Shown here in pieces: positions 1-16,039 of a DNA stretch of 44,661 nucleotides. This DNA comes from a virus. Its lineage: Duplodnaviria; Heunggongvirae; Uroviricota; Caudoviricetes. The notes beneath the pieces are model-generated. The model did not search any database. It had not been told where the DNA came from and saw only the letters and a list, made by a program, of their open reading frames with translations. Location of the stretch: the IMG/VR virus record IMGVR_UViG_2654587540_000005; one strand, 5' to 3'. Within the stretch, counting starts at the first letter, position 1, and every line of letters starts with the position of its first letter. The translations under genes and the position numbers were made by a program.

Positions 1-414
1 TTATCCTATGTATTCCTTCGCATTTATTCCATGCTTTAATAAGTGTATAAGGTTTTAGCTAAGTTGATTTTTTTATTGACTTGGCTTTTTTGTGTCTGGT
101 TTGATGGTCTAGTTATGAGTGTAGGTATTTTTCGATTAAAGCGTATATCTTGATTTTTATATTAAGAATCATTCCTGATTTCTACTGAAGCCAAGAGAAA
201 ATTATTAATATATTTCATAGGATGATTTTGAATTAGGATCTAAACAATAAGATATGGTTCACGTAAATTTATTTTGCTGGAGTGATAACTCGATTGGGTG
301 TTTATTGAGGGGGGGCAAAAATATTGGTTTGACATTATTATTACTACCTTTTTTTGTTTCTTTGCTCAGTGTTTACGTTGCTTTTTAGCGTGCAAAAAAT
401 AGAGAACTATTATA

Positions 415-1677
415 CTAATTCATTTTCTTTATTCTCTGGGCGAATTCAAACGGTGTAATGTGTTCTTTTCTGTTGGCATTAAGGTAGTCAGCCCACCATT
501 GTAACATGAGTTTTCTCTCTTCGAGATGTTCCGCTTTGTGGATATATGCTGCCCGAACCGAGTTACGCTCTTGGTGGCTCATTTGACGTTCTACGGCGTC
601 TCTTGACCATAACCCAGATTCGATTAATGCACTACAAGCCATAGTTCGAAAACCGTGACCACAAACTTCAGCTTTCGTGTCGTAACCCATGGTGCGAAGA
701 GCCTTGTTAACAGTGTTTTCGCTGATTGGTTTGTCATCGCGACTAAAACCAATGAACATAAGATCCTTTTCTCCACTTATAGCTTGGAGCCTTTTAAATA
801 ATACTACAGCCTGCTTACTTAGCGGCACAAGATGAGGGGTTTTCATTTTTGAGCCCCTATTTGAATACTTAACCCCCTCCAATTCTCGTCTTTCTGCAGG
901 GATTGTCCATAAGGAGTTTTTGAAATTCACCTCAGACCAACGAGCGAATCTAAGTTCACTTGAACGGATGAAAGTCAGTAGAGTTAATTGAACTGCTATT
1001 TGAGTGATACCTTTCCCTTTATAGGCATCAATCCGTTTGAGAAGCTCAGGAAGTCGTTCGAGGGGAAGGGCAGGGCGGTGATTACTCTTGGCAGTGGTTA
1101 CAGCGCCTGCGAGGTCGTAAGCTGGGTTTTGGTCAATCAAAGCATTGTGAACAGCATACCGCATGATGGCAGTGATTCTTTGTTGTAAACGGGCAGCAAG
1201 TTCAAGATGTCCAGTTTCCTCTGCTTTTTTCAGAGGAACAAGTAAATCACGAGTTTTAAGCTCACTAATGTTCCGCTTACCGATAACAGGAAATACATGA
1301 GTGATCAGGCTGTTTAATACGGTAGTTCTGTGACTGTCTGACCAGGTTCTGTTGCTTGAGTGCCAGTCTCTGGCAACAGTTTCAAAAATGAGTAAGCCTT
1401 TCTCTTCAATCTTTTCTGTTTTTCGCTTTTCGCCAGGGTCAACATTGTTGGCAATGAGTTGCCTTGCTTCTTCTCTTCTACGACGAGCTTCTGCTAAAGA
1501 CACTTCGGGATAAACACCAAGCGCCAACATTTTTTGCTTACCAGAAAAGCGATATTGAAGCCGCCAGTATTTTGAACCCGTAGGGTGAACCAGGAGATGC
1601 ATACCATCCCCATCTGTTAACTTGACGGGCTTTTCAGTAGGTTTCGCATTTCTGACTTTTACCTCAGTTAGTGCCAT
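415..1677 (-). CDS. int: Tyrosine site-specific integrase, P4-like family
   Basis: 420 aa ORF with ATG at 1677 preceded by GGAGG. N-terminus (KPTEKPVKLTDGDGMHLLVHP...YWRLQYRF) is a P4-type arm-binding domain and the C-terminal half has the tyrosine recombinase pattern (...HGFR...RAAYIH...). Confidence 0.85.
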   Translation of the reverse strand: MALTEVKVRNAKPTEKPVKLTDGDGMHLLVHPTGSKYWRLQYRFSGKQKMLALGVYPEVSLAEARRRREEARQLIANNVDPGEKRKTEKIEEKGLLIFETVARDWHSSNRTWSDSHRTTVLNSLITHVFPVIGKRNISELKTRDLLVPLKKAEETGHLELAARLQQRITAIMRYAVHNALIDQNPAYDLAGAVTTAKSNHRPALPLERLPELLKRIDAYKGKGITQIAVQLTLLTFIRSSELRFARWSEVNFKNSLWTIPAERRELEGVKYSNRGSKMKTPHLVPLSKQAVVLFKRLQAISGEKDLMFIGFSRDDKPISENTVNKALRTMGYDTKAEVCGHGFRTMACSALIESGLWSRDAVERQMSHQERNSVRAAYIHKAEHLEERKLMLQWWADYLNANRKEHITPFEFAQRIKKMN

Positions 1678-1853
1678 TGTGACCTCCTGATGATGGTATC
1701 TGCATTATCGAACTTACAATACCAACAGTTATACCAACAAAACAAGCTGGATGTCCGTATATCCCAACAGTCCTTGGTAGACCATGGTTAAAGTGTACTT
1801 CATTGAAATGATTGGGAAAAATAGACTTTGATATACTTCGGTAGACAGGGTTC

Positions 1854-1873
1854 TGGCGTCCCCTGCAGACATC
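1854..1873. repeat. Degenerate direct copy of the argW 3' end (putative distal att site)
   Basis: tggcgtcccctgcagacatc matches tggtgtcccctgcaggaatc at 43579..43598 in 17 of 20 positions, with an exact 11-bp core gtcccctgcag. It lies in the int/alpA intergenic gap. Confidence 0.45.
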
Positions 1874-1941
1874 TACTTGAAGCGGCAGGGGGTTGATTGG
1901 AATGGTATTTTTTAGATGTGAGAAATATTTTACCCGCTATT

Positions 1942-2142
1942 TTACCCATTGGCGCGGCTTAAGAGCTTATTTTTGAATTCACAATGGTCACGATATAACC
2001 ATCTTGCTCGCCCGTGGATAACTTTGGCTTTAGGCAGGTCGCCGGACTTAATCCGGTCGTAGATGAAGGTTTTACCAAAGCCAGTATCAGCCATGATGAA
2101 TTTCAAATCAACCAGGGAATCAGGCTGTAGTTCGTGTTGCAT
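1942..2142 (-). CDS. alpA: AlpA-family HTH protein, putative excisionase/regulator
   Basis: 66 aa ORF with ATG at 2142 and a GGAGA RBS. Small HTH protein (…FIYDRIKSGDLPKAKVIHGRARWLYRD…) typical of AlpA/Xis-like proteins at prophage ends. Confidence 0.7.
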   Translation of the reverse strand: MQHELQPDSLVDLKFIMADTGFGKTFIYDRIKSGDLPKAKVIHGRARWLYRDHCEFKNKLLSRANG

Positions 2143-2266
2143 GAGTGCTATCTCCGAATAGGGAATCGAACCTGCAAATCAGGTAATAAAAAACCGCATT
2201 GATGCGGCGATGGTAGGTCTGGATATCTTGATAAATGAAAATGCCTCATCGAGTGTGAGGCTGTGG

Positions 2267-2611
2267 TTAGTCCTTGCGTAACTCGCTAATTCTTCTGTAA
2301 GTCTCTGGTGCTTTGTTCCCGTACGTCTTCATTTCAGACTTCAACAGAGCAACGAGTGAATCCCATTCGTTGAGGATGCCTTTGAATGCTGGAACGCGCT
2401 TTGCAACCTTGTCGAATGAATCTCTTATTTCTGGAATCTGCTCAACAAGTGCAACGCATCGTCGGAAATCGGCCACATCATGTGGAGCGCCGAAGTGATG
2501 ACCATAGATATTCTTTTTCAGTCCACATGCGATTGAGGCAAGAGTTGCGCTACTGATGCCGACATCGCCAGTCGATTGCCATTTCAAAACCTTCATAGCC
2601 AAATCTGACAT
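2267..2611 (-). CDS. Hypothetical phage protein
   Basis: 114 aa ORF with ATG at 2611 and a GGAGA RBS, co-oriented with and immediately upstream of the DpdA-like gene. No domain recognised. Confidence 0.5.
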   Translation of the reverse strand: MSDLAMKVLKWQSTGDVGISSATLASIACGLKKNIYGHHFGAPHDVADFRRCVALVEQIPEIRDSFDKVAKRVPAFKGILNEWDSLVALLKSEMKTYGNKAPETYRRISELRKD

Positions 2612-2668
2612 TTCTTGTCTCCATAAAACAAAACTCGCCGTAGCGAGTTCAGATAAAAGAAATCCGCA

Positions 2669-3472
2669 TTAAGCGGCGTCGGTGAATTCAAATAAAAAAC
2701 CGGCTTGCGCCGGCTCTCTCATCTTTCTGTCTACCCATGCTGATATCGATGGCTGGTGCACCTTTTCAATAGCAGCGCGAAGTACAGCTGTACGTGCCAG
2801 TTTGTCGGTAATCTCAGGAAATCGCTTCTCAGTTTTTGGTACGTTAACGGCAACGTTAGTAGAATCTGCGCTGGCGAATGGATACATCCCAAGCACCCTG
2901 ACATCTAGCATCCTCAATCCATGGAGCTTAACCGGGGATTTTCTATTGATGTATAGCTCAGTAAACACCTCATCCATGCGCTGCTCCCACCACTTAGATC
3001 GTATATGTCTGTGCGGTCCGCAACATCCTATTGCGACCCACTCATAACGCTCAGAAAGCCTCACAAGTCGATCAATCGATTCATCAGAATGCCATACAGG
3101 TACGTCCTTGGACGCAAGCCAGTGTGGAACTAATGCTAACTGCTCATCGTTTTCTTCCTCCGTTCCTTCAATGACATCAGGTATAAGAAACCACTCAATT
3201 CGGCTGAACCATTTCCCGACAAAGTCATAAAACCTCTCACTTCGCTTCCCCCAGTCCACCGTTTTCTTTTTCTTTTTGGCTTTATCCCATGCTGAAAACG
3301 CGCCGTTATCAAGTCTGATATCACATGGGATCATTGCCACTTTCTTCATCTGCTCCGGTCTTGCAAATGAAATGAACGCTCCACCATCACGGTACAGAGC
3401 CTTTATGAGCATATCTGTAGGTGCATCTTTATCACCCCAGATAGGACTTCCGTGAAAGTGGACTGTCATCAT
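2669..3472 (-). CDS. TGT-superfamily protein, putative DpdA-like DNA 7-deazaguanine transglycosylase
   Basis: 267 aa ORF starting ATGATG at 3472. Motifs RLDNGAF (cf. TGT DSGGFQ), AIGCCG, LHGLRML and FASADST are consistent with a tRNA-guanine transglycosylase-like barrel. Its start overlaps the stop of the upstream membrane-protein gene. Confidence 0.5.
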   Translation of the reverse strand: MMTVHFHGSPIWGDKDAPTDMLIKALYRDGGAFISFARPEQMKKVAMIPCDIRLDNGAFSAWDKAKKKKKTVDWGKRSERFYDFVGKWFSRIEWFLIPDVIEGTEEENDEQLALVPHWLASKDVPVWHSDESIDRLVRLSERYEWVAIGCCGPHRHIRSKWWEQRMDEVFTELYINRKSPVKLHGLRMLDVRVLGMYPFASADSTNVAVNVPKTEKRFPEITDKLARTAVLRAAIEKVHQPSISAWVDRKMREPAQAGFLFEFTDAA

Positions 3473-3930
3473 CTCTTCCTTAAAATTAATGACCAGATAA
3501 AACCTCCGCCAACCTTAGCAATGAACTGGCCGGCAATGATTCCTGGCATAAGAGAGCCGAATGCGATAAGCGGGAACGATATAGAATCAATAACTGAAGC
3601 GGTTATGTTTGAGGCATTTGCCTTAACTGACCAAGGCTTGCGAATCAACAGTTGATAGACGCTTCCGTCTCCCAGTGATGCGAGAACGAAGGAGGCTGAG
3701 GAGGCAATGGCGATCATGCCGCCTGCAGGATTAATGATGTAACTTAAAACTCCTGACAGTACAGCAAGCCCAGTAACTTTAATAAACCCGATTCGCTCAT
3801 GGAGTACGTCACGAAGAATGAAATCAAGGCCAATCAGAGCGAAAGAATTGACGATAGACCACCATGGTCCGAACAGAAACACAAGGTAGTTAGCTGCGCA
3901 GATTGCTAATACATATACAAGTGCAGCCAT
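3469..3930 (-). CDS. Polytopic membrane protein, putative YhhQ/VUT-family queuosine-precursor transporter (short form)
   Basis: Hydrophobic ORF; preferred start is ATG at 3930 with a GAGGG RBS, whereas the ORF-track start at 3987 is a GTG. Several predicted TM helices and YhhQ-like segments by recollection. Translationally coupled to the DpdA-like gene. Confidence 0.4.
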   Translation of the reverse strand: MAALVYVLAICAANYLVFLFGPWWSIVNSFALIGLDFILRDVLHERIGFIKVTGLAVLSGVLSYIINPAGGMIAIASSASFVLASLGDGSVYQLLIRKPWSVKANASNITASVIDSISFPLIAFGSLMPGIIAGQFIAKVGGGFIWSLILRKR

Positions 3931-4083
3931 AGTTGACCCTCTGACATGTGAATGAGCGAAGAGATAGCCGCCCATGCAATAAGGCACGCTATGGCGACCA
4001 GAACTGGGTTGTAATGCATGGTGACTCCGGATAAAGAAAAACCCGCTGGGTGCGGGTTTGTTATGCGTCGAATGGGTTAGGCG

Positions 4084-4323
4084 TCATCCAAGGTATGGCT
4101 TCTTCCAGTCCTCGCTGGTAGCCAACCTCTCCATGGCAAGCAGAATCGGCAGATTAGATTCGTCTGTCTTCTTCATGATTTCCCAATGAAGCCGTTTTAA
4201 CTCGTGGACCAGCTGGTCTCTGTTTGTTTCCGCATCATTGCTGGCAAGCATCAAGCAGCACTCACCAACAATTCGACACGCTTCCCGGTACAGGTCTTCT
4301 GAAAGCTTCTCATATTCTGACAT
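4084..4323 (-). CDS. Hypothetical early-left protein
   Basis: ATG at 4323 with a GGAGGGG RBS; the ORF-track start at 4341 has a weaker context. 79 aa. Confidence 0.5.
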   Translation of the reverse strand: MSEYEKLSEDLYREACRIVGECCLMLASNDAETNRDQLVHELKRLHWEIMKKTDESNLPILLAMERLATSEDWKKPYLG

Positions 4324-4360
4324 AAGCAACCCCTCCACCATGAAGGGATTTTATATCACA

Positions 4361-4687
4361 TCAGTTTGCATCCTGCTGCTCAGCCCTCCGCGCTTCAGCG
4401 TCGTGATATCCCTGCATGTAAGCATCAGCCCAGTCTGGGTTAACACCTGCCTGAATAGCGATTTCGTCGATACACTCAGGCTCTGCGGCGGCCTTTTTCG
4501 CGTGCTCACGAATCTGCGCGATTAGCTCCTCGGCATTAACCTCAAAGCACTTCAGAGTTTCACATCCGCCAACCTTGTCACCGGAGATTCGGCACCCGCC
4601 ATCATCGTTACTTACGCAGAGGGAAAGGCCACCGGCCTGATTGTGAGATATTTCGATATAAACATTGCCTGTCTTCAATTTAGACAT
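4361..4687 (-). CDS. Hypothetical early-left protein
   Basis: 108 aa ORF with ATG at 4687 and an AGGAGG RBS. Its start overlaps the stop of the upstream gene. Confidence 0.5.
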   Translation of the reverse strand: MSKLKTGNVYIEISHNQAGGLSLCVSNDDGGCRISGDKVGGCETLKCFEVNAEELIAQIREHAKKAAAEPECIDEIAIQAGVNPDWADAYMQGYHDAEARRAEQQDAN

Positions 4688-5294
4688 TTTTAGCCTCCTG
4701 CTGCGGCGCTGCTGGTGCGGCGGCGAGCATTTTCGAGTAGCAATGCACTGTATTCAGCCAGAACCCAACCACCGATTGTCCAGCACGCAACATATCTTTT
4801 GTTGGGTCAATCGGAACAAGTTTCCATCCATTCGGAATCACCGGAGAGTTACCAGCCACCATTTTGTTGGCATCATCAGAATGGTCTACCATTTCGAGGT
4901 GTTGCTCGGTATGGTTTCCTCCCTGAAGCATGGCGGCGCGGCAGGCATTCCAGCCTCTCACCTCTGCAATAGCGGCAACAGCATCGACCGCGTACATTTT
5001 AAGAGGGTTGGGCATTGGTTTTTCTTCAGGTACTACTGGCACTGGAGGGGCGGCGTATACTTCAATTGTCCCATTATCAATAGGCCATTCTCCATCCTTG
5101 ATGTAGTCACTTGTGCCATCGACCTGCTGTTCTGCAATGTGGAAAGCACCTATTGGTTTTGCTTCCAGCGATGCCAGAGCAATTCGTGCCAGTTCTTCCG
5201 CTTCTTCTGCTGGCAGTACAACGTTGCTGCCAGGTCCGTATGTTTCGCGCCACTGCTTGATTGTCAGCAGTCGCTCTTTGGTAATAGTGATCAT
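4680..5294 (-). CDS. Hypothetical early-left protein
   Basis: 204 aa ORF with ATG at 5294 and an AAGGAA RBS. No recognised domain. Confidence 0.55.
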   Translation of the reverse strand: MITITKERLLTIKQWRETYGPGSNVVLPAEEAEELARIALASLEAKPIGAFHIAEQQVDGTSDYIKDGEWPIDNGTIEVYAAPPVPVVPEEKPMPNPLKMYAVDAVAAIAEVRGWNACRAAMLQGGNHTEQHLEMVDHSDDANKMVAGNSPVIPNGWKLVPIDPTKDMLRAGQSVVGFWLNTVHCYSKMLAAAPAAPQQEAKNV

Positions 5295-5806
5295 GCCGCG
5301 TTTCCTTCTTTCTTATTAACAATTACACCGTCATATATTTCATTAAGGTGCCCTCTCAACTCCATGCGCCTTAATGCAGATAACATGTAATCGCATTCAA
5401 CCTGCTTATTTCCAGTAAATGGCTTATCGTCAGGATTACCCCAACAGCAATTACCCTTGGGCCACCCATGTACTTTCCGTACTCTTCCGTTAACAACGTG
5501 AAGTAATCCCCAGCCAGGTGGTAAATCCTCAATTGAAATAATTCCCGGCTCACTAATAAAGAATCGCCAGTCGCCCATTCCAAGAGACGGATTTTTACGA
5601 AAACGCTTTTTTCTATCTGCTAACAAGTCAGCACGAGAACACTTCGCTTCTATCAGGCATGATGCTGAATTTCTGAATCCCATAGCATCTGGCTGTTCTC
5701 CGGTACTGGTTACAGCTATAAAGCGGTCATGAAAACAAACCTTGAACCCGTTGCGCTTAAGGAACTTATACGCAATCTGACAGAGTTCACGGTGTGTTAA
5801 CGCCAT
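5291..5806 (-). CDS. PD-(D/E)XK nuclease-fold protein (MmcB-like)
   Basis: ATG at 5806 with an AAGGAGAG RBS; the ORF-track extension to 5878 is unsupported. Motif ...GEQPDAMGF...CLIEAKCS fits the PD-x(n)-ExK signature. Confidence 0.5.
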   Translation of the reverse strand: MALTHRELCQIAYKFLKRNGFKVCFHDRFIAVTSTGEQPDAMGFRNSASCLIEAKCSRADLLADRKKRFRKNPSLGMGDWRFFISEPGIISIEDLPPGWGLLHVVNGRVRKVHGWPKGNCCWGNPDDKPFTGNKQVECDYMLSALRRMELRGHLNEIYDGVIVNKKEGNAA

Positions 5807-5807
5807 A

Positions 5808-5996
5808 TCACTCTCCTTTAGTGCGCAAGTGGTTTTTCCAGCGGTTTTGCGCCGCGCTGGGCTTTTTGCTAAAACCACAATCCATCATCCCGTAATATTT
5901 CATCAACCCCATCCGTCGGTTGCTGAGTCTCACCCACTGCCAGACGCCAGGAGCGTTTCTACGAACTAACAGAATCTTTGCTTTACGGTTTTTCAT
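5808..5996 (-). CDS. Small basic hypothetical protein
   Basis: 62 aa ORF with ATG at 5996 and an AGGAGA RBS; its stop abuts the start of the next gene. Confidence 0.4.
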   Translation of the reverse strand: MKNRKAKILLVRRNAPGVWQWVRLSNRRMGLMKYYGMMDCGFSKKPSAAQNRWKNHLRTKGE

Positions 5997-6168
5997 CGTT
6001 TTGCTCTCCTGCGTTTCTTTGCTTCGCGTCGTGCAGCCGCAATACCGGTATGGCGGCGCTTTGGTGCCGGGATGATGTTGTCAGCCATCAGGACATGCGG
6101 CTTCGCAATTAGCGCAGAAGCCCAAAAACGAGTCGGGTACGGTAACAAGCCGATACATGCCACACGCA

Positions 6169-6882
6169 TTACTCACCTCCTTTGATGCGAATGCCAGCTG
6201 CGCTTGCTGATTCTTCATATGCGCGTTTAGCAGCGTTAAGGATTGCTGCCAGTGGCGTATAGCCGCCATCCATTCGGATTGTGTTGTGGATGCCAGCCAT
6301 TGTGTCGCGCAATTTGCTGTGGCTAGCAGACAGTTCTGCTATGCGCTTCTCTGCGGATTCCAGCGCTGCAACCAATTCGTCTACAGTTCCGGCAGCTTGC
6401 AGTGCGTAATCGGTAATAGCCATCTCATGATCAATTTCAGTACCGTTCTCATTCGTTGAGGTGATAGCAAAATAATCAGAGTCGATTTCGTTATCAGCTA
6501 AGTGGCGTAGCGTATCGGCAACAAACTGACCGTTTTCGATTAACAGCTTCCCTACCGTTAGCGCAATATCCTCGTTCTCCTGATCGCGGCGTTTGATGTA
6601 TTGCAGGTTTCTTTCCCGTTCATCCAGCAGTGCCAGCACAGTAACCGGATTGGATGCGGCGATGAATTCAGCATTGGCCTGCTGTTCCATTTGGAAATCT
6701 TCATCGAAACCGCTTTCAGGATGCGCTCCTTCAATTCTGCAAATGGGAAGATATCCAACAACGTCACGATGAATTAGCGCATCATCACAATCAAATCGGC
6801 TCTCTCCATATTCGAGCGACCACACACCACACGTTGCTTTCTCTGCCTTTTCACGCAGTGCCTGATAGTCAATCTTGCTCAC
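6169..6882 (-). CDS. Ead/Ea22-like protein
   Basis: Preferred start is GTG at 6882 with an AAGGAGG RBS, overlapping the upstream stop as GTGA. Acidic protein with an Ea22-like character (…NAEFIAASNPVTVLALLDE…). Confidence 0.5.
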   Translation of the reverse strand: MSKIDYQALREKAEKATCGVWSLEYGESRFDCDDALIHRDVVGYLPICRIEGAHPESGFDEDFQMEQQANAEFIAASNPVTVLALLDERERNLQYIKRRDQENEDIALTVGKLLIENGQFVADTLRHLADNEIDSDYFAITSTNENGTEIDHEMAITDYALQAAGTVDELVAALESAEKRIAELSASHSKLRDTMAGIHNTIRMDGGYTPLAAILNAAKRAYEESASAAGIRIKGGE

Positions 6883-7292
6883 TGGTTGCCTCCTTTGCGA
6901 AGCTGTTCCGCACAATGCAGCAGGGCGTCCGTCGCTTCTTTCACCGTAACGATGTCGCCATCGTCCAGCCCGGCAACCGTCGCGTCCTTAACGAACACCG
7001 AGCAAAGGTCATTAAACGCCTGCGCCCGTACTTCAGCCAGAAAAGCATCGGTGGCTGGGGTTTCCGTGAAGTTGTCCTCCCAACCGTAGTACTCCTGACG
7101 ACAGAAGTTATTAAATTCCTTCTCCGACTGTTTAAGCGCCGCATTTTCCGCTGCCAGCGCCGCGCACTTGGCCTCCGCTTCAGCAAATTTACGCACCAGA
7201 TATTCTGCGTTTGTTTCGTTAACCTTTAAATCTCGTGGGATGCATTTACCTTTCAGAAAACCATCCATCTCAATTAGTGACATTTGTTTCAT
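6879..7292 (-). CDS. Hypothetical coiled-coil protein (Ea22-like N-terminal region)
   Basis: ATG at 7292 with a GGAG RBS; the ORF-track start at 7310 is a GTG. Alanine-rich coiled-coil segment. Confidence 0.45.
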
Positions 7293-7453
7293 TTCTTCCC
7301 ACTCCGCCACATTGCATTCAGATATTTGTTTTGATTCACTGATGGAAACGAGTTTATCTTAAGCAATTCCTCTCTCGATGGCATTGGCTTTACGCGTTGG
7401 CGAATAATCATTTCTGCCGGAAGAATGCCGGGATTGTATGCAAGTCCTCTCAT
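7289..7453 (-). CDS. Small hypothetical protein
   Basis: Internal ATG at 7453 with a GAGGA RBS about 8 nt upstream. Part of the tightly packed leftward operon. Confidence 0.3.
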
Positions 7454-7463
7454 GGTAAATTCC

Positions 7464-7757
7464 TCAGTCATTACTGATAGCGCCATAGCGTGAGCGGTAA
7501 TTACGCAGGCGCGGGTCAATTTCAGGGAAGTGGGTATATGTGGCTTTGCGGAATGGTCGGATTGATGTCTGGTAAATTCGCTCGCGTTCTTCTTTCTCTG
7601 CAAGCCATATACAGTGGCGAAATTCCTTTTCCTCTTTCGTTTCCTGCGGTAGAGCCATTATTCGATCGTAGTTTTTTCTGAATTTATCCAGCACCTCCGA
7701 TACGGAATTGCCGGAACAGCGGCGTGGGTCATCCGCACCATACAGAGGCGCTGGCAT
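7464..7757 (-). CDS. Hypothetical phage protein
   Basis: 97 aa ORF with ATG at 7757 and an AAGGA RBS. Confidence 0.5.
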
Positions 7758-7780
7758 AATTAAATCCTTATTTTTCTAAA

Positions 7781-8164
7781 TCAGAATGGGATGGAATCGT
7801 CGTATACAGGAGTGTTCTGCTGGTTACTACTTTGCTGCTGCGGGCCATTTCCTGAAGCTGCAAATCCAATTTTTGCATTCAGTAATTCAAGAGTGATTGA
7901 TTGACCATTTTGCCCCTGATAAACATCAACCCTGATGTTTTCTCCGGTAATTTCCACAATGCCACCTTCAACAAGAACACTACGGTAGTAATCCGCTTGC
8001 GCTCCCGGCTTGGCAAATACAACGGCGCTGTAGTTTGTCCATTCTTTCTTTTTTGTCTGGCGATCGTAATACTGAACGCCAGCACGGATGTTGAATCCGA
8101 TATTTTCCCCGGCCTGAAACTCTCTTGCGGGCTTGTTTAGTCTTACAGTAATCGAATGTGCCAT
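7781..8164 (-). CDS. Phage single-stranded DNA-binding protein
   Basis: ATG at 8164 overlaps the erf stop. Glycine/glutamine-rich tail ending DDSIPF is the characteristic SSB C-terminal tail. Confidence 0.65.
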   Translation of the reverse strand: MAHSITVRLNKPAREFQAGENIGFNIRAGVQYYDRQTKKKEWTNYSAVVFAKPGAQADYYRSVLVEGGIVEITGENIRVDVYQGQNGQSITLELLNAKIGFAASGNGPQQQSSNQQNTPVYDDSIPF

Positions 8165-8769
8165 TAAGCAGCCGCTCCTTCTAATTCGTCTCGTCTGATG
8201 TTGTAAACGCCATGCGCTTTGTGCTGCTCCGGTGTGCCTTCGAGCATCTTCCACGCTTTGGCGAACGCCTGTTTAAGCTCTTCTACGGTGTTTTTCTGCA
8301 TTGCTGCGTCAGTGAATGCTTTTAGAACCTGTTCAGGTGTAGGTGATGGCTTTGATTGCTTTGCTGCTGCGTTCTGCTGATGTTTATGCTCGTCGGTATC
8401 TGCATCTTTCGCATCATCAATGCCGAATAAACCATTGAGGCAATACTTGCGTGCATAAGAGCTTGTAGCTCCAGTAACTTGTGCAGAATCCATTCCTTTC
8501 TTGCTTTCTTCCTCTCGTGCAAGAGCGGTTGCCGTATGACTGTTTTCGCCATCGGTAATAGTTGCCGTGGCTTTCACGTAATACCGATCACCAATCAACA
8601 CAACTTCATCGCTGATTGATAAAAACAGGCCATTCAGTAACGGCTTAACGCCTTCAAGAATGTCTTCGCAGCTTCTGTATTTATATTTGCCGAATGAGTT
8701 GTACTGATTCTTTGGCGCGTTCAGATTCTCCTGAATAGCTGCCAGTCTTGCGTAAAATTCTTTGCTCAT
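8164..8769 (-). CDS. erf: Erf-family single-strand annealing recombinase
   Basis: ATG at 8769 (MSKEFYARLAAIQENLNAPKNQYNSFGKYKYRSCEDILE...), the conserved Erf N-terminus. Position upstream of ssb matches P22-type recombination modules. Confidence 0.8.
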   Translation of the reverse strand: MSKEFYARLAAIQENLNAPKNQYNSFGKYKYRSCEDILEGVKPLLNGLFLSISDEVVLIGDRYYVKATATITDGENSHTATALAREEESKKGMDSAQVTGATSSYARKYCLNGLFGIDDAKDADTDEHKHQQNAAAKQSKPSPTPEQVLKAFTDAAMQKNTVEELKQAFAKAWKMLEGTPEQHKAHGVYNIRRDELEGAAA

Positions 8770-9025
8770 ATTATTGTTCTCAGAATGGACACGGCCCAAG
8801 GAAATAACGCTGATTTAATACTTCGACTCGGGACAAATTAAGGCATACCCGCATCCCTTCGCGGTCACCATTATGGCGATACCAGAGAGCTTTCTGCGTG
8901 TACATGCGTCTCTGTAACTTGCTCTCCTTCACTGTGGTTGCAAGTGACATGAATATCTCCTTCGTTACCGATTAAATCTTTCATCTGACGAATGAATTCT
9001 TCGTCTGACCAGTTATCTGTAAAAC

Positions 9026-9178
9026 TCATTTCCTGCGATACCACGGAAGGTTGATAGCTGATTTCATCGCTTTATTTGCTTCAAACCACATTTTTGAATC
9101 ACCAATAAATCTGGCTATTACTGCTTTGTTCTGTGCAGCACGAAGCATCTGGTGATTAATGGCTATTTCATTGCGCAT
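9026..9178 (-). CDS. Small ORF in the kil/cIII-position cluster
   Basis: 50 aa ORF with ATG at 9178 and a GGAGG RBS 5 nt upstream; its stop overlaps the next small ORF as ATGA. Confidence 0.3.
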   Translation of the reverse strand: MRNEIAINHQMLRAAQNKAVIARFIGDSKMWFEANKAMKSAINLPWYRRK

Positions 9179-9296
9179 AACGCCTCCAGTTGTTTCTTTG
9201 CTGCTCTGATTAATTGTTTAACTCGGCGTGATAATTCAGATTCGTGCGGGTAGAAAGCGGACATGACGCCGCTACCCGCTAAAATATATTCATTCA

Positions 9297-9809
9297 TTAT
9301 TTGCTCCTGTAGAATTCGCCGTGATGCTTTCTGGCAAAGTCGCAGTAAGCTTTTTTGGCATCTTCTAATTCATTAAAGTACCCTAGATGTTTTTTCTTCC
9401 CGTTTAATTTCCCATAGGCAGCCCACTTTCTACTTTCCTTCTTCCATGTGACTCCTTTGCAACCTGATTTGTTGAGGGTATTTATTTTACTATTCATTGA
9501 ATTCTGTGAGTAAGTTGCAAGCCTCAGATTGCAAATTCTGTTATCTGTCTTTATGCCATTTATATGGTCGATAATACCTTCAGGCTCAACACCGAAAGTG
9601 ATAATCCATGCAAGTCTATGTGCAGCATAGTGTCTTCCGTTAATGAAAATCCTTAAGTAGCCGCTTGTTGTTATTGTTCCGGCAGTTCCACCTATCTTCC
9701 TTGCTCCATAAGATTTTAGCCATGTGAACTCACCAGAAATAGGGTTATATTTGACAACATTATTAATCTCACTTAGGGAAATTAATTCAAGAATCTTTAT
9801 AAGTGCCAT
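9297..9809 (-). CDS. HNH endonuclease with AP2-type DNA-binding domain
   Basis: HNH motif HINGIKTDNRICNLRL and AP2-like segment SGCKGVTWKKESRKWAAYGK. AT-rich; ATG at 9809. Confidence 0.8.
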   Translation of the reverse strand: MALIKILELISLSEINNVVKYNPISGEFTWLKSYGARKIGGTAGTITTSGYLRIFINGRHYAAHRLAWIITFGVEPEGIIDHINGIKTDNRICNLRLATYSQNSMNSKINTLNKSGCKGVTWKKESRKWAAYGKLNGKKKHLGYFNELEDAKKAYCDFARKHHGEFYRSK

Positions 9810-9893
9810 TTTATATCCTATCAACTGCGTTCATTAATCAGCGTTTACGCTCATGAATAAACACCTCTCGTGAAGCGTTATTGGTATGCATAT

Positions 9894-9917
9894 AAAAAGG
9901 CCCTCACACTGGAGGGC
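9894..9917 (-). terminator. Rho-independent terminator for leftward transcription (tL-like)
   Basis: Minus-strand hairpin GCCCTCCAGTGTGAGGGC followed by a U-run, sited between the 83-aa ORF and the HNH gene. Confidence 0.5.
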
Positions 9918-10053
9918 AAAGAAGATTTCCAATAATCAGAACAAGTCGGCTCCTGTTTAGTTACGAGCGACATTGCTCCGTGTATTCACTCGTTGGAATG
10001 AATACACAGTGCAGTGTTTATTCTGTTGTTTGTGCCAAAAATAAAGGCCACCG

Positions 10054-10305
10054 TCAGGCAGCCTTGTTGTAAATGTTGCAGGTATCAAGTAAGTAATTAG
10101 ATGGAGCGCCATAAATTATGAATTCATCGTTTGTCGGGTCCATCTCCATCTCTTGGCCTATTGCCATTCTTGCGTCAGTGTCATCAGCGGCGAAGCATAA
10201 AACAGCCCACGCACCCATTGTTTTAAACAGAACTGCAATTGGCTGTGGTTTTACTGAATTTGCGTTAGCGCGAAAATCACAAATCGCACTTTCATGAAAC
10301 TCCAT
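10054..10305 (-). CDS. Hypothetical protein
   Basis: 83 aa ORF with ATG at 10305 and a GAGGTGAG RBS. Confidence 0.5.
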   Translation of the reverse strand: MEFHESAICDFRANANSVKPQPIAVLFKTMGAWAVLCFAADDTDARMAIGQEMEMDPTNDEFIIYGAPSNYLLDTCNIYNKAA

Positions 10306-10367
10306 ATCTCACCTCAAATAAGTGGTTTGCTGCCAAAACAATGAACCATCCGGAAATTCCAGATAGT

Positions 10368-10592
10368 TCATAATTCACTCTTCAATACTTCCAACTTACT
10401 AATCGCCGATAGATATCCGCGCTGATAGGGCATCATCATTCCTTCGAGCTTGCCACTTCTTAACTCCTCCCTGAGCAATTGTATTGCTTGATCAATAACC
10501 TCTGCCTTAGCGTCCTTTATGGCTTGCTTGCGGGGCTTTGCTTTCTGCTTTGGCAGATTTCTCAAGCATGATGGAATGTATGTCTGATTCAT
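10368..10592 (-). CDS. Hypothetical protein downstream of N
   Basis: ATG at 10592 with a GAGGTAAG RBS, directly following the N stop. Confidence 0.5.
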   Translation of the reverse strand: MNQTYIPSCLRNLPKQKAKPRKQAIKDAKAEVIDQAIQLLREELRSGKLEGMMMPYQRGYLSAISKLEVLKSEL

Positions 10593-10595
10593 CAC

Positions 10596-10859
10596 TTACC
10601 TCGCTGTAACCTGCTTACTTGTACGATGACCAGCTGCGAAAAGCGCAACTTCTGGCAGGCAGACAGTACCACCTTCAACTTCCTTCTGAAGCGTTCCGGC
10701 AAGCGAAATGGCTTTTGTTACGCGTGTACTGCATGTGCTATTTGCTACCCGGCGCGAAAGAGAAGCGTCCTGCATTGCCTGCTCACGTTGAGCCTGTCTG
10801 CGTGCTCTGCGGCGATTTCTGGCGTTATCGTCAGCCAGATATGTAATGACTACTGTCAT
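10596..10859 (-). CDS. N: N-type transcription antitermination protein (P22 gp24-like)
   Basis: 87 aa with an arginine-rich motif (NARNRRRARRQAQREQ) near the N-terminus and a C-terminus (VTKAISLAGT.QKEVEGG...AAGHR.SKQ.TAR) matching P22 gp24. Sits immediately downstream of nutL. Confidence 0.7.
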   Translation of the reverse strand: MTVVITYLADDNARNRRRARRQAQREQAMQDASLSRRVANSTCSTRVTKAISLAGTLQKEVEGGTVCLPEVALFAAGHRTSKQVTAR

Positions 10860-10966
10860 GTTGACCTCCGATGATTGACTTTGGCGGTGACGCGCCGGGT
10901 GCTTATCTTCCGGTTGCCGTCGTGCAGCTGCACTTCACGTCACCCCAAAGCCAACTACTCTTTGGT

Positions 10967-11009
10967 TCCCGCATTTCGGCGGGACAATCCCATCAATGTT
11001 AAAGAGCCT
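10967..11009 (-). promoter_or_regulatory. nutL (boxA plus boxB)
   Basis: On the leftward transcript, boxA-like TGTTAAAGAGCC (10998..11009) is followed by a boxB hairpin at 10967..10984 whose sequence is identical to the nutR boxB. Confidence 0.6.
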
Positions 11010-11057
11010 GCCAATCTGTTCCGTTTGGCTTCCAGCGTCCTGCTGATGGCTAAAGAA

Positions 11058-11095
11058 TACTGTAGGTATTTTATTGTGTAAATACCCAAGGTATT
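11058..11095. promoter_or_regulatory. oL operator sites / pL region
   Basis: Two 13-bp ATAC-N5-GTAT palindromes (atactgtaggtat, atacccaaggtat) and a possible degenerate third at 11127..11139, matching the oR sites. Confidence 0.55.
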
Positions 11096-11226
11096 TATTT
11101 TTGGTGAAATAATGATAAGCAAATGAATACAAAGGATATTTATTTTTTCGGTGTCTGCTTGTTCAGTGTTTTTTATGCGGGATATGTGAAGTGGATCCCG
11201 ATAGCTATTGCTGCCGGGATTATGGG

Positions 11227-11595
11227 TTAGTCAGCGAAGGTTAAGACGAGAATTACCTTAATGATGTCTGCTACAACAGACACAGCCATAGATAAACCAA
11301 AGACGATCCAAGCCATAGAGATGTCTTCACTACCATCGTATAGCGTTCCGTAATCACTGGTGTAAGGCGTAAATGTCGCGCCTTGATACAACAGGTATAA
11401 GCTTGAACCATAGAGGATAAATGCAGATATCCCTTGTATTGCTATGATCACCAGAATCATGAAACGAGCTGATCTATGCGCCCAAGCCTGGCTTATTTTT
11501 TCTGATAGAGATTTCGCAATAAAAGCATGCGCTAAGCCGTAAATTGTCGAGATTGCCAACATCCCAAAAAAGCTTGATATAGCGGTTCCAACCAT
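11227..11595 (-). CDS. Small polytopic membrane protein at the rexAB position
   Basis: ATG at 11595 with an AAGGGG RBS, 18 nt downstream of the cI stop and co-oriented. Three to four predicted TM segments; no similarity to lambda RexB noticed. Confidence 0.6.
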   Translation of the reverse strand: MVGTAISSFFGMLAISTIYGLAHAFIAKSLSEKISQAWAHRSARFMILVIIAIQGISAFILYGSSLYLLYQGATFTPYTSDYGTLYDGSEDISMAWIVFGLSMAVSVVADIIKVILVLTFAD

Positions 11596-11612
11596 AATCG
11601 CCCCTTGCGTGA

Positions 11613-12329
11613 TCAAACCAGCCTTAGTTTTGTCTCAATTGCAACGCCTATAATCTTGCAGTTTCCATTGATTGGCACGAGAGGCCATGCAGGATTAAGT
11701 CCCTTGAGGTATTTATTTCCGCCGTCGATTATCAGCTTCTTGAATGTTGCTTCGTTAGAGTCAGAAAGTTTTGCTATGACCAAGCTGCCGTTGATCGCCT
11801 CCCTTCCGGTATCGAAAAGAACGAATGTTCCCTCTGGAATGCTTAACCCAACCGGTGCCGTCATTGAATCACCTTCCACTTTAAGCCAGAACGCATTACC
11901 TTGAATATGCGCGTCAGACTCAAGCCAAACATCTATGTCTTTAATGGTGTATGGTTCGCATGCTTCACACCACGAGCCAGCCTGGATACTGCTTAACACC
12001 GGATACCTCTTTCCTGCTCTGTATTCCCCTGCATACCTTACGTTGGCATCGCTCTTAAGGCTTTCTGCCTGTTCTGCAACCTTGGCAGCAATTGACTGGC
12101 TAAAATCAGCAATTGAGACTTGCAACAAACGTGCAAAACCAGATGCGACCTCAACGTTTAGCGCGTTTCTGCCATTAAGATAATGCCCTACCGCTCCTTG
12201 GGTGATACCCAGTTCATCAGCGATTGAGTATTGGGTTATTCCCAATTCTTTCTTTTTTGACTCATACAAAGCCTTAAGCCGCTTAGCGTCTTCGAGCTGT
12301 TCTGTCGTCAGTGATTTTTTATTTTCCAT
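11613..12329 (-). CDS. cI: CI-type prophage repressor (HTH plus S24 LexA-like peptidase domain)
   Basis: 238 aa; N-terminal HTH with the lambda-cI-like pattern TTEQLEDAKRLKALYE, C-terminal autocleavage domain (EGDSM...FKKLI). Confidence 0.9.
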   Translation of the reverse strand: MENKKSLTTEQLEDAKRLKALYESKKKELGITQYSIADELGITQGAVGHYLNGRNALNVEVASGFARLLQVSIADFSQSIAAKVAEQAESLKSDANVRYAGEYRAGKRYPVLSSIQAGSWCEACEPYTIKDIDVWLESDAHIQGNAFWLKVEGDSMTAPVGLSIPEGTFVLFDTGREAINGSLVIAKLSDSNEATFKKLIIDGGNKYLKGLNPAWPLVPINGNCKIIGVAIETKLRLV

Positions 12330-12365
12330 AGCTTAATTCTAATAGCTAAGGTACTTAAACTAAAA

Positions 12366-12403
12366 ATACCCTGAGTATTGATTGCTTTGAATACCTGTAG
12401 TAT
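12366..12403. promoter_or_regulatory. oR operator sites with divergent pRM/pR
   Basis: Two 13-bp ATAC-N5-GTAT palindromes (ataccctgagtat, atacctgtagtat) between the divergent cI and cro starts. Confidence 0.6.
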
Positions 12404-12435
12404 TCTTTGTTCATGGTTAATAACGGAGAGTGCAT

Positions 12436-12630
12436 ATGATTCGAATGACACTTGCCGATTACGCCAAAATCCATGGACAGGCTAAAGCAGCCAGTGACTT
12501 TGGTGTAATCCAGTGCGCTATCAGCAAGGCCATTCTGGCAGGCCGTAACATCATGGTTACGGTAAAGCCTGATGGCAGTGTGATTGGAGAGGAAGTTCGT
12601 CCTTTCCCAAGCAACAAGAAAAACAAATAG
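12436..12630 (+). CDS. cro: Cro repressor
   Basis: ATG at 12436 (the ORF track begins at a GTG at 12430). Close to lambda Cro (..DYA...GQ.K.A.D.GV.Q.AI.KAI.AGR.I...DGSV..EEV.PFPSNKK). Confidence 0.85.
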
Positions 12631-12636
12631 TAACAC

Positions 12637-12679
12637 CGCTCTTTAACAGTCATGGTCATCATTCCCGCCGAAATGCGGG
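12637..12679 (+). promoter_or_regulatory. nutR (boxA plus boxB)
   Basis: boxA CGCTCTTTAACA (12637..12648) followed by a boxB hairpin (stem CCCGC/GCGGG, 12664..12679). Confidence 0.65.
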
Positions 12680-12738
12680 AATACAACGCGCATAATTTGA
12701 TGCGCATAACTTCTTATTTGTTAAGGAAATACTTACAT

Positions 12739-13017
12739 ATGCAACTTACAAGTACTCGCAAGAAAGCGAATGCAATTACAAGCAACATCCTGAATCGAAT
12801 TGCTGTACGTGGTCAGCGAAAGGTTGCCGACGCGTTAGGGATTAATGAATCGCAAATTTCGCGATGGAAAGATAGCTTCATCCCCAAAATGGGAATGCTT
12901 CTGGCTGTTCTTGAATGGGGTGTTGAAGACGAGGAGTTGGCGGAACTGGCTAAGAAAGTAGCCAGAATGCTGACAAAAGAAAAAGCCCCGAAGAACGGCG
13001 AATTCTTCGAGGCCTGA
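12739..13017 (+). CDS. cII: CII transcriptional activator
   Basis: ATG at 12739 with an AAGGA RBS. Matches lambda CII (…SQISRWK…[14 protein letters not shown]…). Confidence 0.85.
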
Positions 13018-13051
13018 TGTAGAAAGACTGGATCAATCCACAGGAGTCATT

Positions 13052-13198
13052 ATGACAAAACAACTCAGTCCTTACCAGGACAAAATTCACAAACACATAC
13101 TACGTGATCGCTTCCTGTCCAGCTTCAAGCAACCTGGTCGATTCCGGGCTGAGTTGGAAAAAGTGAAGCTGATGCAGAAGGAGAAAGGTCATGAGTAA
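13052..13198 (+). CDS. Small ORF between cII and the replication gene
   Basis: 48-codon ATG ORF ([15 protein letters not shown]...) ending just inside the O-like gene start. Below the ORF-track cutoff; function unknown. Confidence 0.3.
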
Positions 13199-14051
13199 TA
13201 TTGCAACCGTAACACATTTAAGGCCTTCACAACGGCCTGTGGAGCGTCGTGTGGCAGAAGTTGAAGATGGTTATACCCGTCTTGCAAATGCCCTGTATGA
13301 AGAGCTTATCGGCGCAGATTTAACGAAAAATCAGAGCAAGGTTGCCCACGCCATATGCCGTAAAACATACGGCTACGGTAAAAAGATGGATCGCATCTCT
13401 GATAGTCAGTTAGCTCAAATTACCAGGCTGCCAAGACAGAAGGTAAACAAGGCCAAGAATGAGCTTATCGCGATGAAGGTTATCCTTCGCGAAGGCCAGC
13501 AAATCGGGCCTAACAAGAACATCGAGGAATGGCAAATAGAAGGGTGTCACTACTCTGGTGATAATGTCACTGCATTGGTGACAAAAAGTGTCACCAAAAC
13601 GGTGACAGCGCTGTCACCAAAACAGGGACACACAAAAGAAACTATTACAAAAGAAAAAAGAAATAATAAAAACACTATGTCCGAAAGTGTTCGGACGGAG
13701 TGTGAAAAATCACCTGACCATCACGAAGAAACCGACAAGGCATTCGAGGAAATATTCTGGTGTGCGGGCATGCGGAAAGCCGGGAAGAAAAACGCAGCTT
13801 CAGCATTCAGAACACAGTTCAGGGAATGGCGTAAAACTACCAGGGGTACGGCAAGCGAGTTTGCCACGATGCTGGCAGAAGACATCGCATGCAGGAATGG
13901 TAAGCAGTTCGGATTCGACAGGTTGTTACCATCGAGCTACCTGAACGGTCAGCGCTGGAACGACGAGAAGCCAGAAACCATTCAACCACAATCCAAACCA
14001 TCATCCGCAATCACCGTATCGAAAACTGGCTACGTGTTTTTCGACAGGTGA
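13191..14051 (+). CDS. O: Replication initiator, lambda O-like N-terminal domain
   Basis: N-terminus matches the lambda O DNA-binding domain ([42 protein letters not shown]...) and contains iterons; the C-terminal half differs from lambda O. Confidence 0.8.
13565..13618. repeat. Origin iterons inside the O-like gene
   Basis: Five copies of GGTGACA/TGTCACC at roughly 12-bp spacing (13565..13618), followed by an AT-rich tract (13626..13680), as at ori-lambda. Confidence 0.6.
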
Positions 14052-14158
14052 ACCATGAAATCAAAAATCAAATCGCTACTGGTCGCTGGTTATAACCACG
14101 GCTGGTTAAGTATTTCGTTTGTCGATTTCTGGTTTAAAAATCTCAATCTGAGGGAATC

Positions 14159-16039
14159 ATGAGGCCAAGTGAACTTAGCGACCTGCTTTGGGCGCAGGTT
14201 GACAGGGTGGCTCCGCACCTGTTGCCAAATGGCAAGAAAGAGGGGCATGAGTGGGTTGCCGGTAACGTCAACGGTGACAAGGGAAACAGCCTTAAGGTCA
14301 ACCTTAGCGGCAAGAAAAAATGGGCTGATTTCGCTGAGGGAGACGGCGGTGACATGCTTGATTTGTGGATGGCATGTCGTGGAATTAACCTGCATCAGGC
14401 TATGCAGGAAGCGAAAGCATTTCTCGGTATCAAGGATGACGATCACCATTTCGATGCCAGACGTGAGAAGAAATTCTCCAGACCTGATCGCAAGAAAATC
14501 GCCCGCTACGTTACCAGAACAGAATCCCATCTTGAGTACCTGCAATCGCGTGGCATATCGCCAGAAGTCGTAAAGCGCTACGAGGTTGTCAGCGGCAAGG
14601 TGTGGAATGGAGAACGAGAACTGGATGCTCTGGTGCTTCCGTACAAACGCGATGGTGAGTTGTTGCAGGTCAAGCGAATCAGCACTGAGCGCCCGGACGG
14701 GAAGAAAGTCATTATGGCAGAAGGTGATTGCGAACCTTGTCTGTTCGGATGGCAGGCTCTGGACGCTGGCGTGAGGGCGGTTGTACTTTGCGAAGGCGAA
14801 ATTGATTGTATGAGCTATGCGCAATATGGCATCTCGGCGTTATCCGTGCCGTTTGGTGGCGGGAAAGGAGCTAAACAGCAGTGGATTGAGTTTGAGTATC
14901 ACAACCTCGACAGGTTTGAGGAAATATTCATCTCGATGGACGTTGATGATGTTGGTCGTGAAGCCGCAAGGGAAATCGCAAGCCGACTCGGTGAACATCG
15001 TTGCCGTCTTGTTACTCTGCCGTACAAAGACATCAACGAATGCCTGATGAACGGTGTTACCGAGGATGAAATCTGGCAGTACATCGGCACGGCATCCTAC
15101 TTCGATCCTGAAGAACTCTACAGCGCGCGAGAGTTTTACCAGGACACTATCAACGCTTTCTACGGCAAGCAGCAGTATCTGTTTAATCCACCGTGGGAAT
15201 CTCTGGCAGATAAATTCCAGTTCCGTGAGGCCGAGTTGACGCTGGTCAATGGTGTGAACGGTCACGGAAAAACGGAGGTTGTCGGGCATATGGCACTTGA
15301 GGCAATGCGTCAGGGTGTGAAGACGTGCATCGCGTCACTTGAGCTGAAGCCTGGTATTCTCCTTAAGCGCCTTACCCGTCAGGCGACGTGCTGCAAGATG
15401 CCGCCAGTGCTGGAAATTGACTCTGCATTTAAATTTTATGACGAAAGACTTTGGGTGTTTGGCCTGACCGGAACGGCGAAAGCCGACAGGCTGATCGAAA
15501 TATTCGACTACGCTCGCCGCCGATACGGCATCCAGTTATTCATTATCGACAGCCTGATGAAATGTGGCATAGGCGACGATGACTATAACGGGCAGAAGGC
15601 GTTTGTTGACTCGATTTGCGACTTCAAAAACAAAACAAACTCCCACGTCATTCTCGTTACTCACTCGCGAAAAGGAGACAGCGAAGAAAAACCAACCGGG
15701 AAAATGGACGTAAAAGGCTCTGGAGCGATAACAGACCTGACAGACAACCTTTTCATCATCTGGCGTAACAAGGCTCGCGAGAGAGCGTTACAGAGAGTTC
15801 AGAGTGGTGAAAAGATGTCAGAGAAGGACGAACAGCTACTGGCATCTCCGGCATCTGTTTTGATGCTTGAAAAACAACGTAACGGTGAAGGTTGGGAAGG
15901 TGGTGTCCCGTTGTTCCTTGACGAGCAATCGCACCAGTTCCTGCAACTTGAATCAGGATCGCCATATAGCTACATCGCCAATATGCCGAAATCGGAATAT
16001 GACGAGGCGTGGCGACAGGAAAACGTGACAGAGTATTAA
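14159..16039 (+). CDS. Bifunctional Toprim primase / RecA-fold helicase
   Basis: 626 aa with ATG at 14159 and a GAGGGA RBS. Toprim signatures (VVLCEGEIDCMSYAQYG, ISMDVDDVGREAA), Walker A GVNGHGKT and Walker B LFIIDSL. Confidence 0.75.
   Translation: MRPSELSDLLWAQVDRVAPHLLPNGKKEGHEWVAGNVNGDKGNSLKVNLSGKKKWADFAEGDGGDMLDLWMACRGINLHQAMQEAKAFLGIKDDDHHFDARREKKFSRPDRKKIARYVTRTESHLEYLQSRGISPEVVKRYEVVSGKVWNGERELDALVLPYKRDGELLQVKRISTERPDGKKVIMAEGDCEPCLFGWQALDAGVRAVVLCEGEIDCMSYAQYGISALSVPFGGGKGAKQQWIEFEYHNLDRFEEIFISMDVDDVGREAAREIASRLGEHRCRLVTLPYKDINECLMNGVTEDEIWQYIGTASYFDPEELYSAREFYQDTINAFYGKQQYLFNPPWESLADKFQFREAELTLVNGVNGHGKTEVVGHMALEAMRQGVKTCIASLELKPGILLKRLTRQATCCKMPPVLEIDSAFKFYDERLWVFGLTGTAKADRLIEIFDYARRRYGIQLFIIDSLMKCGIGDDDYNGQKAFVDSICDFKNKTNSHVILVTHSRKGDSEEKPTGKMDVKGSGAITDLTDNLFIIWRNKARERALQRVQSGEKMSEKDEQLLASPASVLMLEKQRNGEGWEGGVPLFLDEQSHQFLQLESGSPYSYIANMPKSEYDEAWRQENVTEY

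Follow-up and report, generated by a model that had tools for sequence, protein, structure and literature searches.

Mobile elements can accrete in tandem at tRNA genes: a newcomer recombines with the functional 3' end of the gene, displaces the earlier element and leaves a partial copy of the tRNA behind. At argW, the IntS-TorI recombination module of KplE1 (CPS-53), HK620, Sf6 and CUS-3 has been described by Panis et al. (PLoS Genet 2010, PMC2951348) and in Viruses 2012 (PMC3509656). Experiments have established TorI as the recombination directionality factor (RDF) that partners IntS (PMC3509656, PMC2951348). The two proteins are necessary and sufficient for the excision of KplE1, and they also act on HK620 substrates (PMC2951348, PMC3509656).

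The DNA studied here is a stretch of 44,661 nucleotides from a Caudoviricetes virus record (IMG/VR record IMGVR_UViG_2654587540_000005), called the window below. It carries two different integrase genes at the two ends of a P22-like prophage. We consider it about 93% probable that two independent elements are stacked at argW, with IntS and TorI as the recombination kit of the prophage and the left integrase as that of a genomic island. An initial annotation of the window had held that sequence alone cannot settle which integrase mobilises the prophage. This did not stand, because comparison with free phages and with 30 prophage-free genomes assigns ownership. Sequence comparison largely settles the question: the gene identities, the att junctions and the presence/absence polymorphism are established here, and we infer which element came first and what each integrase catalyses. 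The picture of tandem elements, which the initial annotation had favored, is supported by the att junctions and by the presence/absence polymorphism of island and prophage.

Results

The two integrases were compared by BLASTP; domains were identified by Pfam and NCBIfam, phage families by PHROG and the tRNA by ARAGORN. Gene presence was counted across 5426 complete Escherichia coli genomes, and phage records were taken from a separate phage collection. The window has the order yfdC, argW, P22-like prophage and genomic island (Table 1). Both integrase open reading frames (ORFs) were confirmed on the minus strand where the initial annotation had placed them. Its N-terminal pattern, KPxEKPxxLxDGxGxxLxV...WxLxY, was found in both proteins, and both have the Arm-DNA-bind_3 (DUF4102), Phage_int_M and Phage_integrase architecture. 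They had been called clearly different proteins, and the BLASTP alignment of left against right bears this out with 32% identity over 400 aa (E = 3e-72); they are homologous yet distinct. Aligned pairwise with IntS and P4 Int, as had been suggested, the left integrase is 34% and 56% identical, respectively, and the right integrase 99% and 37%.

Table 1. Features of the argW locus in the window. Positions count from the first nucleotide of the window.
Feature	Position	Strand	Remarks
Island integrase, P4-Int-like tyrosine recombinase	415..1677	-	420 aa; outside the prophage att repeats
Three direct repeats ATMCCAACA(GT), candidate arm-type sites of the island integrase	1719..1771	+	Between its start codon and the att core
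attR core, TGGCGTCCCCTGCAG	1854..1868		3'-terminal 15 nt of island-type argW; also the remnant of the argW-proximal att of the island
P22-like (Lederbergvirus) prophage body	1869..43578		torI at the left end, intS at the right end
Motif TTTTACCC, two copies on the attR side, read as IntS arm-type motif	1928..1947	+	Position-based
torI (HK620 hkaC, Sf6 gene 18), RDF/excisionase of the IntS module	1942..2142	-	66 aa; 'alpA' of the initial annotation
16-mer GGAATCGAACCTGCAA	2162..2177 (second copy 43593..43608)		Equals the argW T-arm, tRNA nt 46-61 of the 75-nt gene; upstream of torI
intS, the prophage's own integrase	42236..43417	-	393 aa from ATG; the mechanical ORF reaches back to a GTG at 43453
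Motif TTTTACCC, three copies on the attL side, candidate IntS arm-type sites	43418..43462		Between the int start codon and the core
attL core	43578..43593		Minus strand reads CTGCAGGGGACACCAT; the 15-nt repeat copy is 43579..43593
argW, tRNA-Arg(CCT)	43579..43653	-	ARAGORN; sole tRNA gene in the window; 3' end now phage-supplied (discriminator A73)
yfdC, chromosomal flank	43729..44661	-	Adjoins argW in annotated sister loci and in K-12; the segment matches 5426/5426 genomes

The right integrase is the IntS of the prophage. Besides its match to K-12 IntS, it shows 98% amino acid identity to the Int proteins of HK620 and Sf6, and its gene is 95-96% identical in nucleotide sequence to int of HK620, Sf6, CUS-3, HZ41, IME10, HF4s and N7. 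With 37% identity to P4 Int it is a distant member of the P4-like tyrosine integrases. The protein is named intS by PGAP in sister genomes. The gene begins 161 nt downstream of argW, a tRNA-Arg(CCT) gene, and it lies immediately next to the tRNA in the same orientation and is transcribed away from it. The initial annotation had recognized here the K-12-like argW-intS arrangement, and the near identity to K-12 IntS together with the position beside argW agrees with it. The catalytic R-K-H-R-H-Y residues are intact, at positions that match those of the left integrase.

The partner of IntS lies at the other end of the prophage. A 66-aa protein encoded there has 100% amino acid identity to K-12 TorI, HK620 HkaC and Sf6 gp18, matches PHROG 66 (excisionase) and carries the RefSeq label torI in sister genomes. 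No Pfam or NCBIfam match was obtained for it, and the identity to TorI and the PHROG match gave the identification. In the initial annotation, the left integrase was preceded by an att-like repeat and alpA. The position of both was right but their ownership was not: the 66-aa ORF is TorI, and the repeat is the attR core of the prophage. The torI module is present in about 1435 of the 5426 E. coli genomes. We also considered an adjacency of xis and int of the lambda/P22 type, with att beyond the 3' end of int, and did not find it, as the core separates both genes.

The boundaries of the prophage were defined by its att sites. The core pattern TGGYGTCCCCTGCAG, which is the 3' end of argW, has exactly two copies in the window (43579..43593 and 1854..1868; 0.00 expected), and no copy lies left of position 415 in the window. 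The attL core CTGCAGGGGACACCAT is identical at 16/16 positions to the published 16-nt core of KplE1 (PMC2951348), and the attR sequence CTGCAGGGGACGCCAG matches at 14/16 (15 nt contiguous with one mismatch). We explain the two mismatches of attR by recombination of the phage with an argW whose 3' end the island had already replaced. In a four-way alignment, attL joins the int-side arm of the phage to bacterial argW, and attR joins the island flank to the torI-side arm of the phage. The attP sites of HK620, Sf6 and HZ41 and the attB site of E. coli strain CUVET21-37 carry the reciprocal halves of attL and attR. Matches to phages HZ41 and IME10 start at 1854, and matches to prophage-free E. coli stop at 1868.

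Both ends of the prophage are contiguous in virion genomes, where the corresponding blocks overlap by 15-20 nt. Window positions 42182..43598 map to 7714..9127 of HZ41 and positions 1854..2639 to 9108..9890; the same two blocks map to 11403..12731 and 12717..13794 of IME10, with a 15-nt overlap. In the free phage, int and torI form one module, which is split on integration. The annotations of HK620 and Sf6 give the same order, with int followed by the attP core and by hkaC or gene 18.

The two cores in the window differ by one base, which is C at position 1857 in attR and T at position 43582 in attL. This is the discriminator position of the tRNA, and it follows from the difference that the exchange took place on its tRNA-body side. 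In island-bearing, prophage-free strains argW ends with GACGCCA (G73); after phage insertion it ends with GACACCA (A73), like argW of K-12. As read from these genomes, the discriminator of the functional argW, G73 or A73, is dependent on the element that integrated last.

The motif TTTTACCC occurs six times in the window versus 1.15 expected, and five of the six copies are clustered beside the two cores. HK620 has annotated attP repeats at matching relative positions, namely on either side of the int start, where hkaB meets hkaC and, for one of them, within int. We read TTTTACCC as the arm-type motif of IntS, its equivalence to the HK620 repeats being one of position and not base by base. The region 43418..43462 aligns with HK620 and Sf6. 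The orientation of int and the TTTTACCC cluster fit a predicted overlap of promoter and attL, and in K-12 the intS promoter overlaps attL (PMC2951348).

A second argW-derived sequence, the 16-mer GGAATCGAACCTGCAA, lies upstream of torI. It falls within the pI promoter/cII-box region annotated in HK620, and it is invariant in HK620, Sf6, HZ41 and K-12 KplE1 (locus L007, 11776..11791). The diverged module of Klebsiella phage Chronis does not have it; hence it is not universal for the module. The estimated chance that any 16-mer of the tRNA recurs in the window is about 1e-3. We considered this 16-mer repeat (2162..2177 and 43593..43608) as the att duplication, which would leave torI outside the prophage, and the attP and attB alignments rule it out. 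The attP core comprises tRNA positions 61-75 and one more base. Together with the 16-mer, it gives the phage the last 30 nt of argW without a gap, in two pieces on either side of a 293-nt insert with torI in it. Possibly the ancestral attP was longer, and the 16-mer is what survives of it after insertion of the RDF gene.

The left integrase is, on the comparative evidence, part of a separate argW genomic island and not of the prophage. Window positions 1..1868 are 100% identical to numerous E. coli chromosomes in which the left integrase lies directly at argW and no prophage is present. One of these is CUVET21-37, which has the order yfdC, tRNA-Arg, integrase, RloB and AAA ATPase; its integrase, WP_023277626.1, is 100% identical to the left integrase and directly beside argW. 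Segment 1..1853 is found in 44 of the 5426 E. coli genomes, always as a single copy. In 30 of these carriers the match stops inside argW and there is no prophage; in the other 14 it continues into torI, with an IntS/TorI prophage wedged between. The body of the wedged prophage is different in at least one of these, FXCREC004. K-12 carries intS...torI at argW without the left integrase. Neither the left integrase nor segment 1..1853 was found in any record of the phage collection. The closest phage or satellite homologue of the left integrase is P4 Int (56.6%); one closer match (68%) is a Salmonella chromosomal contig within the phage collection. The left integrase keeps all of its catalytic residues, R238, K277, H341, R344, H368 and Y378.

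For relatives of the left integrase in other genera with at least 77% identity, 11 loci had enough upstream sequence to be assessed; at all 11 the integrase gene follows tRNA-Arg(CCT) at a distance of about 180 nt and shares its orientation. The target was observed to track identity: relatives at 77% or more sit at tRNA-Arg(CCT), those at about 73% at tRNA-Phe(GAA), and those at 67-70% at tRNA-Leu(CAA), which is the target of P4. All relatives examined (loci L010-L069) are located 180-200 nt downstream of the tRNA and in its orientation.

In CUVET21-37 the far boundary of the island is a 23-nt repeat of argW, TGGTGTCCCCTGCAGGAATCGAA (locus L009, 44085..44107), at a distance of about 45.7 kb. 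This distal att was not found in the first 41 kb of that island (locus L005) and lies farther out. Window positions 43579..43601 of argW are identical to the distal repeat at 23/23 positions. The island repeat is 23 nt long, approximately from the T-loop to CCA, versus 15-16 nt for the phage. The island-proximal site (1854..1876) keeps 15 of the 23 nucleotides, and the intact 23-mer is 41.7 kb away beside intS. The shortened proximal repeat may affect independent excision of the island. The distal flank of the island att repeat is about 70% like the proximal flank, hinting at an older related insertion.

The pattern ATMCCAACA(GT) has three matches in the window, all upstream of the left integrase, versus 0.68 expected. 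ATMCCAACA also occurs 55-95 bp inside the distal att of the CUVET21-37 island, as the sole match in 49.5 kb there. These repeats are candidate arm-type sites of the island attP, with binding suggested by their number and placement. The annotated arm repeats of P4 have a different motif and lend no support.

In sister genomes (locus L001, 3983..6000; locus L006, 18043..20000), the first island genes past the integrase encode an AAA-family ATPase and a RloB-family protein. Our guess is that this pair is an anti-phage defence cassette. Farther into the island there are fragments of serine and tyrosine recombinases, ParB genes, an Hxs radical-SAM cluster and a relaxase. This content suggests that the island consists of several accreted elements.

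The prophage with one core copy spans 1869..43593, or 41,725 bp, and the P22 record has 41,724 bp. Its body consists of mosaic blocks that are 95-96% identical to Escherichia phages Louie, HZ41, IME10 and Dewey. Among its products are a repressor, an O-like replication initiator, a primase/helicase, the large terminase, the coat protein and Ant, and its tailspike has the head-binding domain of P22. This tailspike and the P22-type genes for head, packaging and ejection place it in Lederbergvirus.

IntS of this prophage has an unusual C-terminus. At 42236..42262 the reading frame has TTA (GAG TTA) in place of GAG TGA/TAA, and this stop-loss adds 8 residues, the protein ending in ...EKAELGNLNTIG. 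A V384A substitution accompanies it. Among the 385 residues shared with HZ41 Int, 383 are identical. An exact 76-nt stretch over the variant int 3' end was found with 100% identity in 4 of the 5426 E. coli genomes, and 8 genomes match at all; two of the four also carry the island. The same stretch has no match in the phage collection. Judged from its gene content and att sites, the prophage is probably active in excision in this strain.

Three other parts of the prophage drew our attention. In the early-left region, on the minus strand, 2669..3472 encodes a homologue of queuine tRNA-ribosyltransferase (PHROG 887, E = 4e-95), and it is followed by 3469..3987 (minus strand, PHROG 4899); phage HK106 has a block similar to 2669..3987. 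We presume that this pair could be cargo for 7-deazaguanine DNA modification of the DpdA type (anti-restriction). A perfect hexanucleotide tandem repeat, (CAGAGC)n, is present at 30058..30103, in the 5' end of ORF 30052..30651 just downstream of the coat gene. This tract is possibly slippage-prone and within a head/tail accessory gene. The GC content falls to 0.35-0.40 at 40000..42100, versus about 0.47 over the whole prophage. This region encodes the C-terminal (receptor-binding) part of the 743-aa tailspike, and the Pfam match of the tailspike is confined to the N-terminal head-binding domain. The low GC content is consistent with the C-terminus being a horizontally exchanged host-range module.

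Discussion

The recombination genes of this prophage closely resemble the module of KplE1, HK620 and Sf6. IntS has 98-99% amino acid identity, TorI is identical, argW is the target, and the 16-nt core at attL is the same. As in those elements, int and the RDF gene stand at opposite ends of the prophage, attP lies between them in the free phage, and TTTTACCC is found by both cores. Four marks of an IntS-TorI module are present: an IntS-type integrase, a TorI-type RDF, their placement at opposite ends and the duplication of the argW core. Unlike KplE1, the module here belongs to a full-length P22-like prophage and not to a 10-kb remnant as in K-12. It also differs from the KplE1/HK620/Sf6 module in the two mismatches of attR and in the 8-aa stop-loss extension of IntS.

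The island integrase is similar to that of P4 in its 56% identity, in its domain architecture, in a 12-aa insertion which is common to P4 Int and missing from IntS, and in its location about 180 nt downstream of a tRNA in the same direction. The 23-nt direct repeat, spanning the T-loop to the CCA end of the tRNA, is also like that of P4-type islands. Unlike P4, the island targets argW and not leuX, and its candidate arm repeats are ATMCCAACA in contrast to the TGCCCCC type of P4. It further differs from P4 in being, in sister genomes, a mosaic of about 45 kb with the AAA-ATPase/RloB pair, recombinases, ParB genes and a relaxase. Among the annotated genes in the approximately 41 kb of island examined, we saw none for a P4-type primase and no sid, psu or delta; therefore, the island does not look like a P4-type satellite.

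We propose the following order of events. The island with its P4-like integrase would have taken argW first, supplying its own tRNA 3' end with G73. The free phage, with the order intS, attP core and torI, would then have used IntS to recombine attP with the argW 3' end that the island had reconstituted. Integration would split the module, so that intS comes to lie beside argW at attL (43579..43593) and torI at attR (1854..1868), the opposite end. It would also restore the A73 end of the tRNA and leave the G73 fragment at attR. By the same event, the island and its integrase would be pushed 41.7 kb away from the tRNA. For excision, IntS and TorI would recombine attL with attR to give a 41.7-kb circle and to rejoin argW directly to the island. 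The predicted attP junction reads ...GAACTGATAAATGG(T/C)GTCCCCTGCAGACATCTACTTG..., and the predicted restored attB reads ...GGGTTCTGG(C/T)GTCCCCTGCAGGAATCGAACC....

Three points speak against this proposal. The first is that the island beyond the left end of the window was deduced from sister genomes. The second is that IntS carries the rare stop-loss together with V384A, and its full activity is, from the protein sequence, not guaranteed. The third is a possible cross-reaction, since the segments of the tRNA 3' end that the two integrases recognise overlap. In a variant of the proposal, two elements compete for one tRNA site. Insertion of the phage would functionally entrap the island, as the proximal block shrinks from 23 to 15 nt and the intact argW core comes to lie 41.7 kb away from the arm sites, and the island would move only after the prophage had been excised, a hierarchical lock. 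Alternatively, the P4-like integrase would cross-act on the att sites of the prophage. We regard this variant as unlikely.

Also unlikely is the view that the two integrases are owned as we propose but that the prophage is locked, with neither integrase mobilising it because the IntS stop-loss or other lesions block excision. The 8-aa extension and V384A are rare and are present in no sequenced free phage, which would favor such a defect. Against it, the catalytic residues of IntS are intact, and nearly every residue shared with HZ41 Int (383/385) is the same. The prophage is full length, its replication, packaging and head genes are apparently intact, and both att cores and the TTTTACCC motifs are in place.

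It is very improbable that prophage and island form one composite which is moved as a whole, whether by either integrase or by the left one with the intact argW site and the distal repeat as its substrates. The 23/23 match between argW (43579..43601) and the distal repeat of the island, with 15/23 kept at the middle site, means that the outer pair might be favored. However, the two elements are distributed independently, with the torI module in about 1435 genomes versus 44 for the island integrase, 30 of which lack the prophage. Different prophage bodies are found in the same slot, and 41.7 kb lie between the candidate arm sites of the island and the intact argW core. Prophage and island together would measure about 87 kb, too much for a P22-type head, judging from the genome size of 41.7 kb. 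Hardly credible at all is a lambda/P22-style xis-int cassette, in which the left integrase and 'alpA' mobilise the prophage and argW-intS is left over from an older KplE1-like element: the order and strand are superficially lambda-like (early-left operon, small excisionase-like ORF and int) and K-12 intS does sit in a defective remnant, but the att core 1854..1868 lies between the small ORF and the left int, so that the boundary of the prophage separates the two genes. The small ORF encodes TorI, which partners IntS, and free phages have torI joined to intS and not to the left int. To the left of 415 the window has no further copy of att, and 1..1853 is absent from phage records and stands beside argW without the prophage in 30 genomes.

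Two stacked elements, each with its own integrase, remain the explanation that we prefer. Compared with tandem accretion at tRNA genes in general, nothing essential differs here; two integrases that are about one-third identical use overlapping segments of the same tRNA, of roughly 15 and 23 nt counted from its 3' end. The arrangement is already known and is nothing new in kind, being a textbook IntS/TorI module stacked with a P4-type argW island. The switch of the argW discriminator between G73 and A73 is a side effect, and current understanding is unchanged. For annotation, the recombination genes of the prophage are intS and torI at its opposite ends, and the neighbouring integrase marks another element. 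Programs that call prophage boundaries from integrase to integrase would misplace this locus. It offers a clean natural case of two distantly related integrases acting on overlapping parts of one tRNA 3' end.

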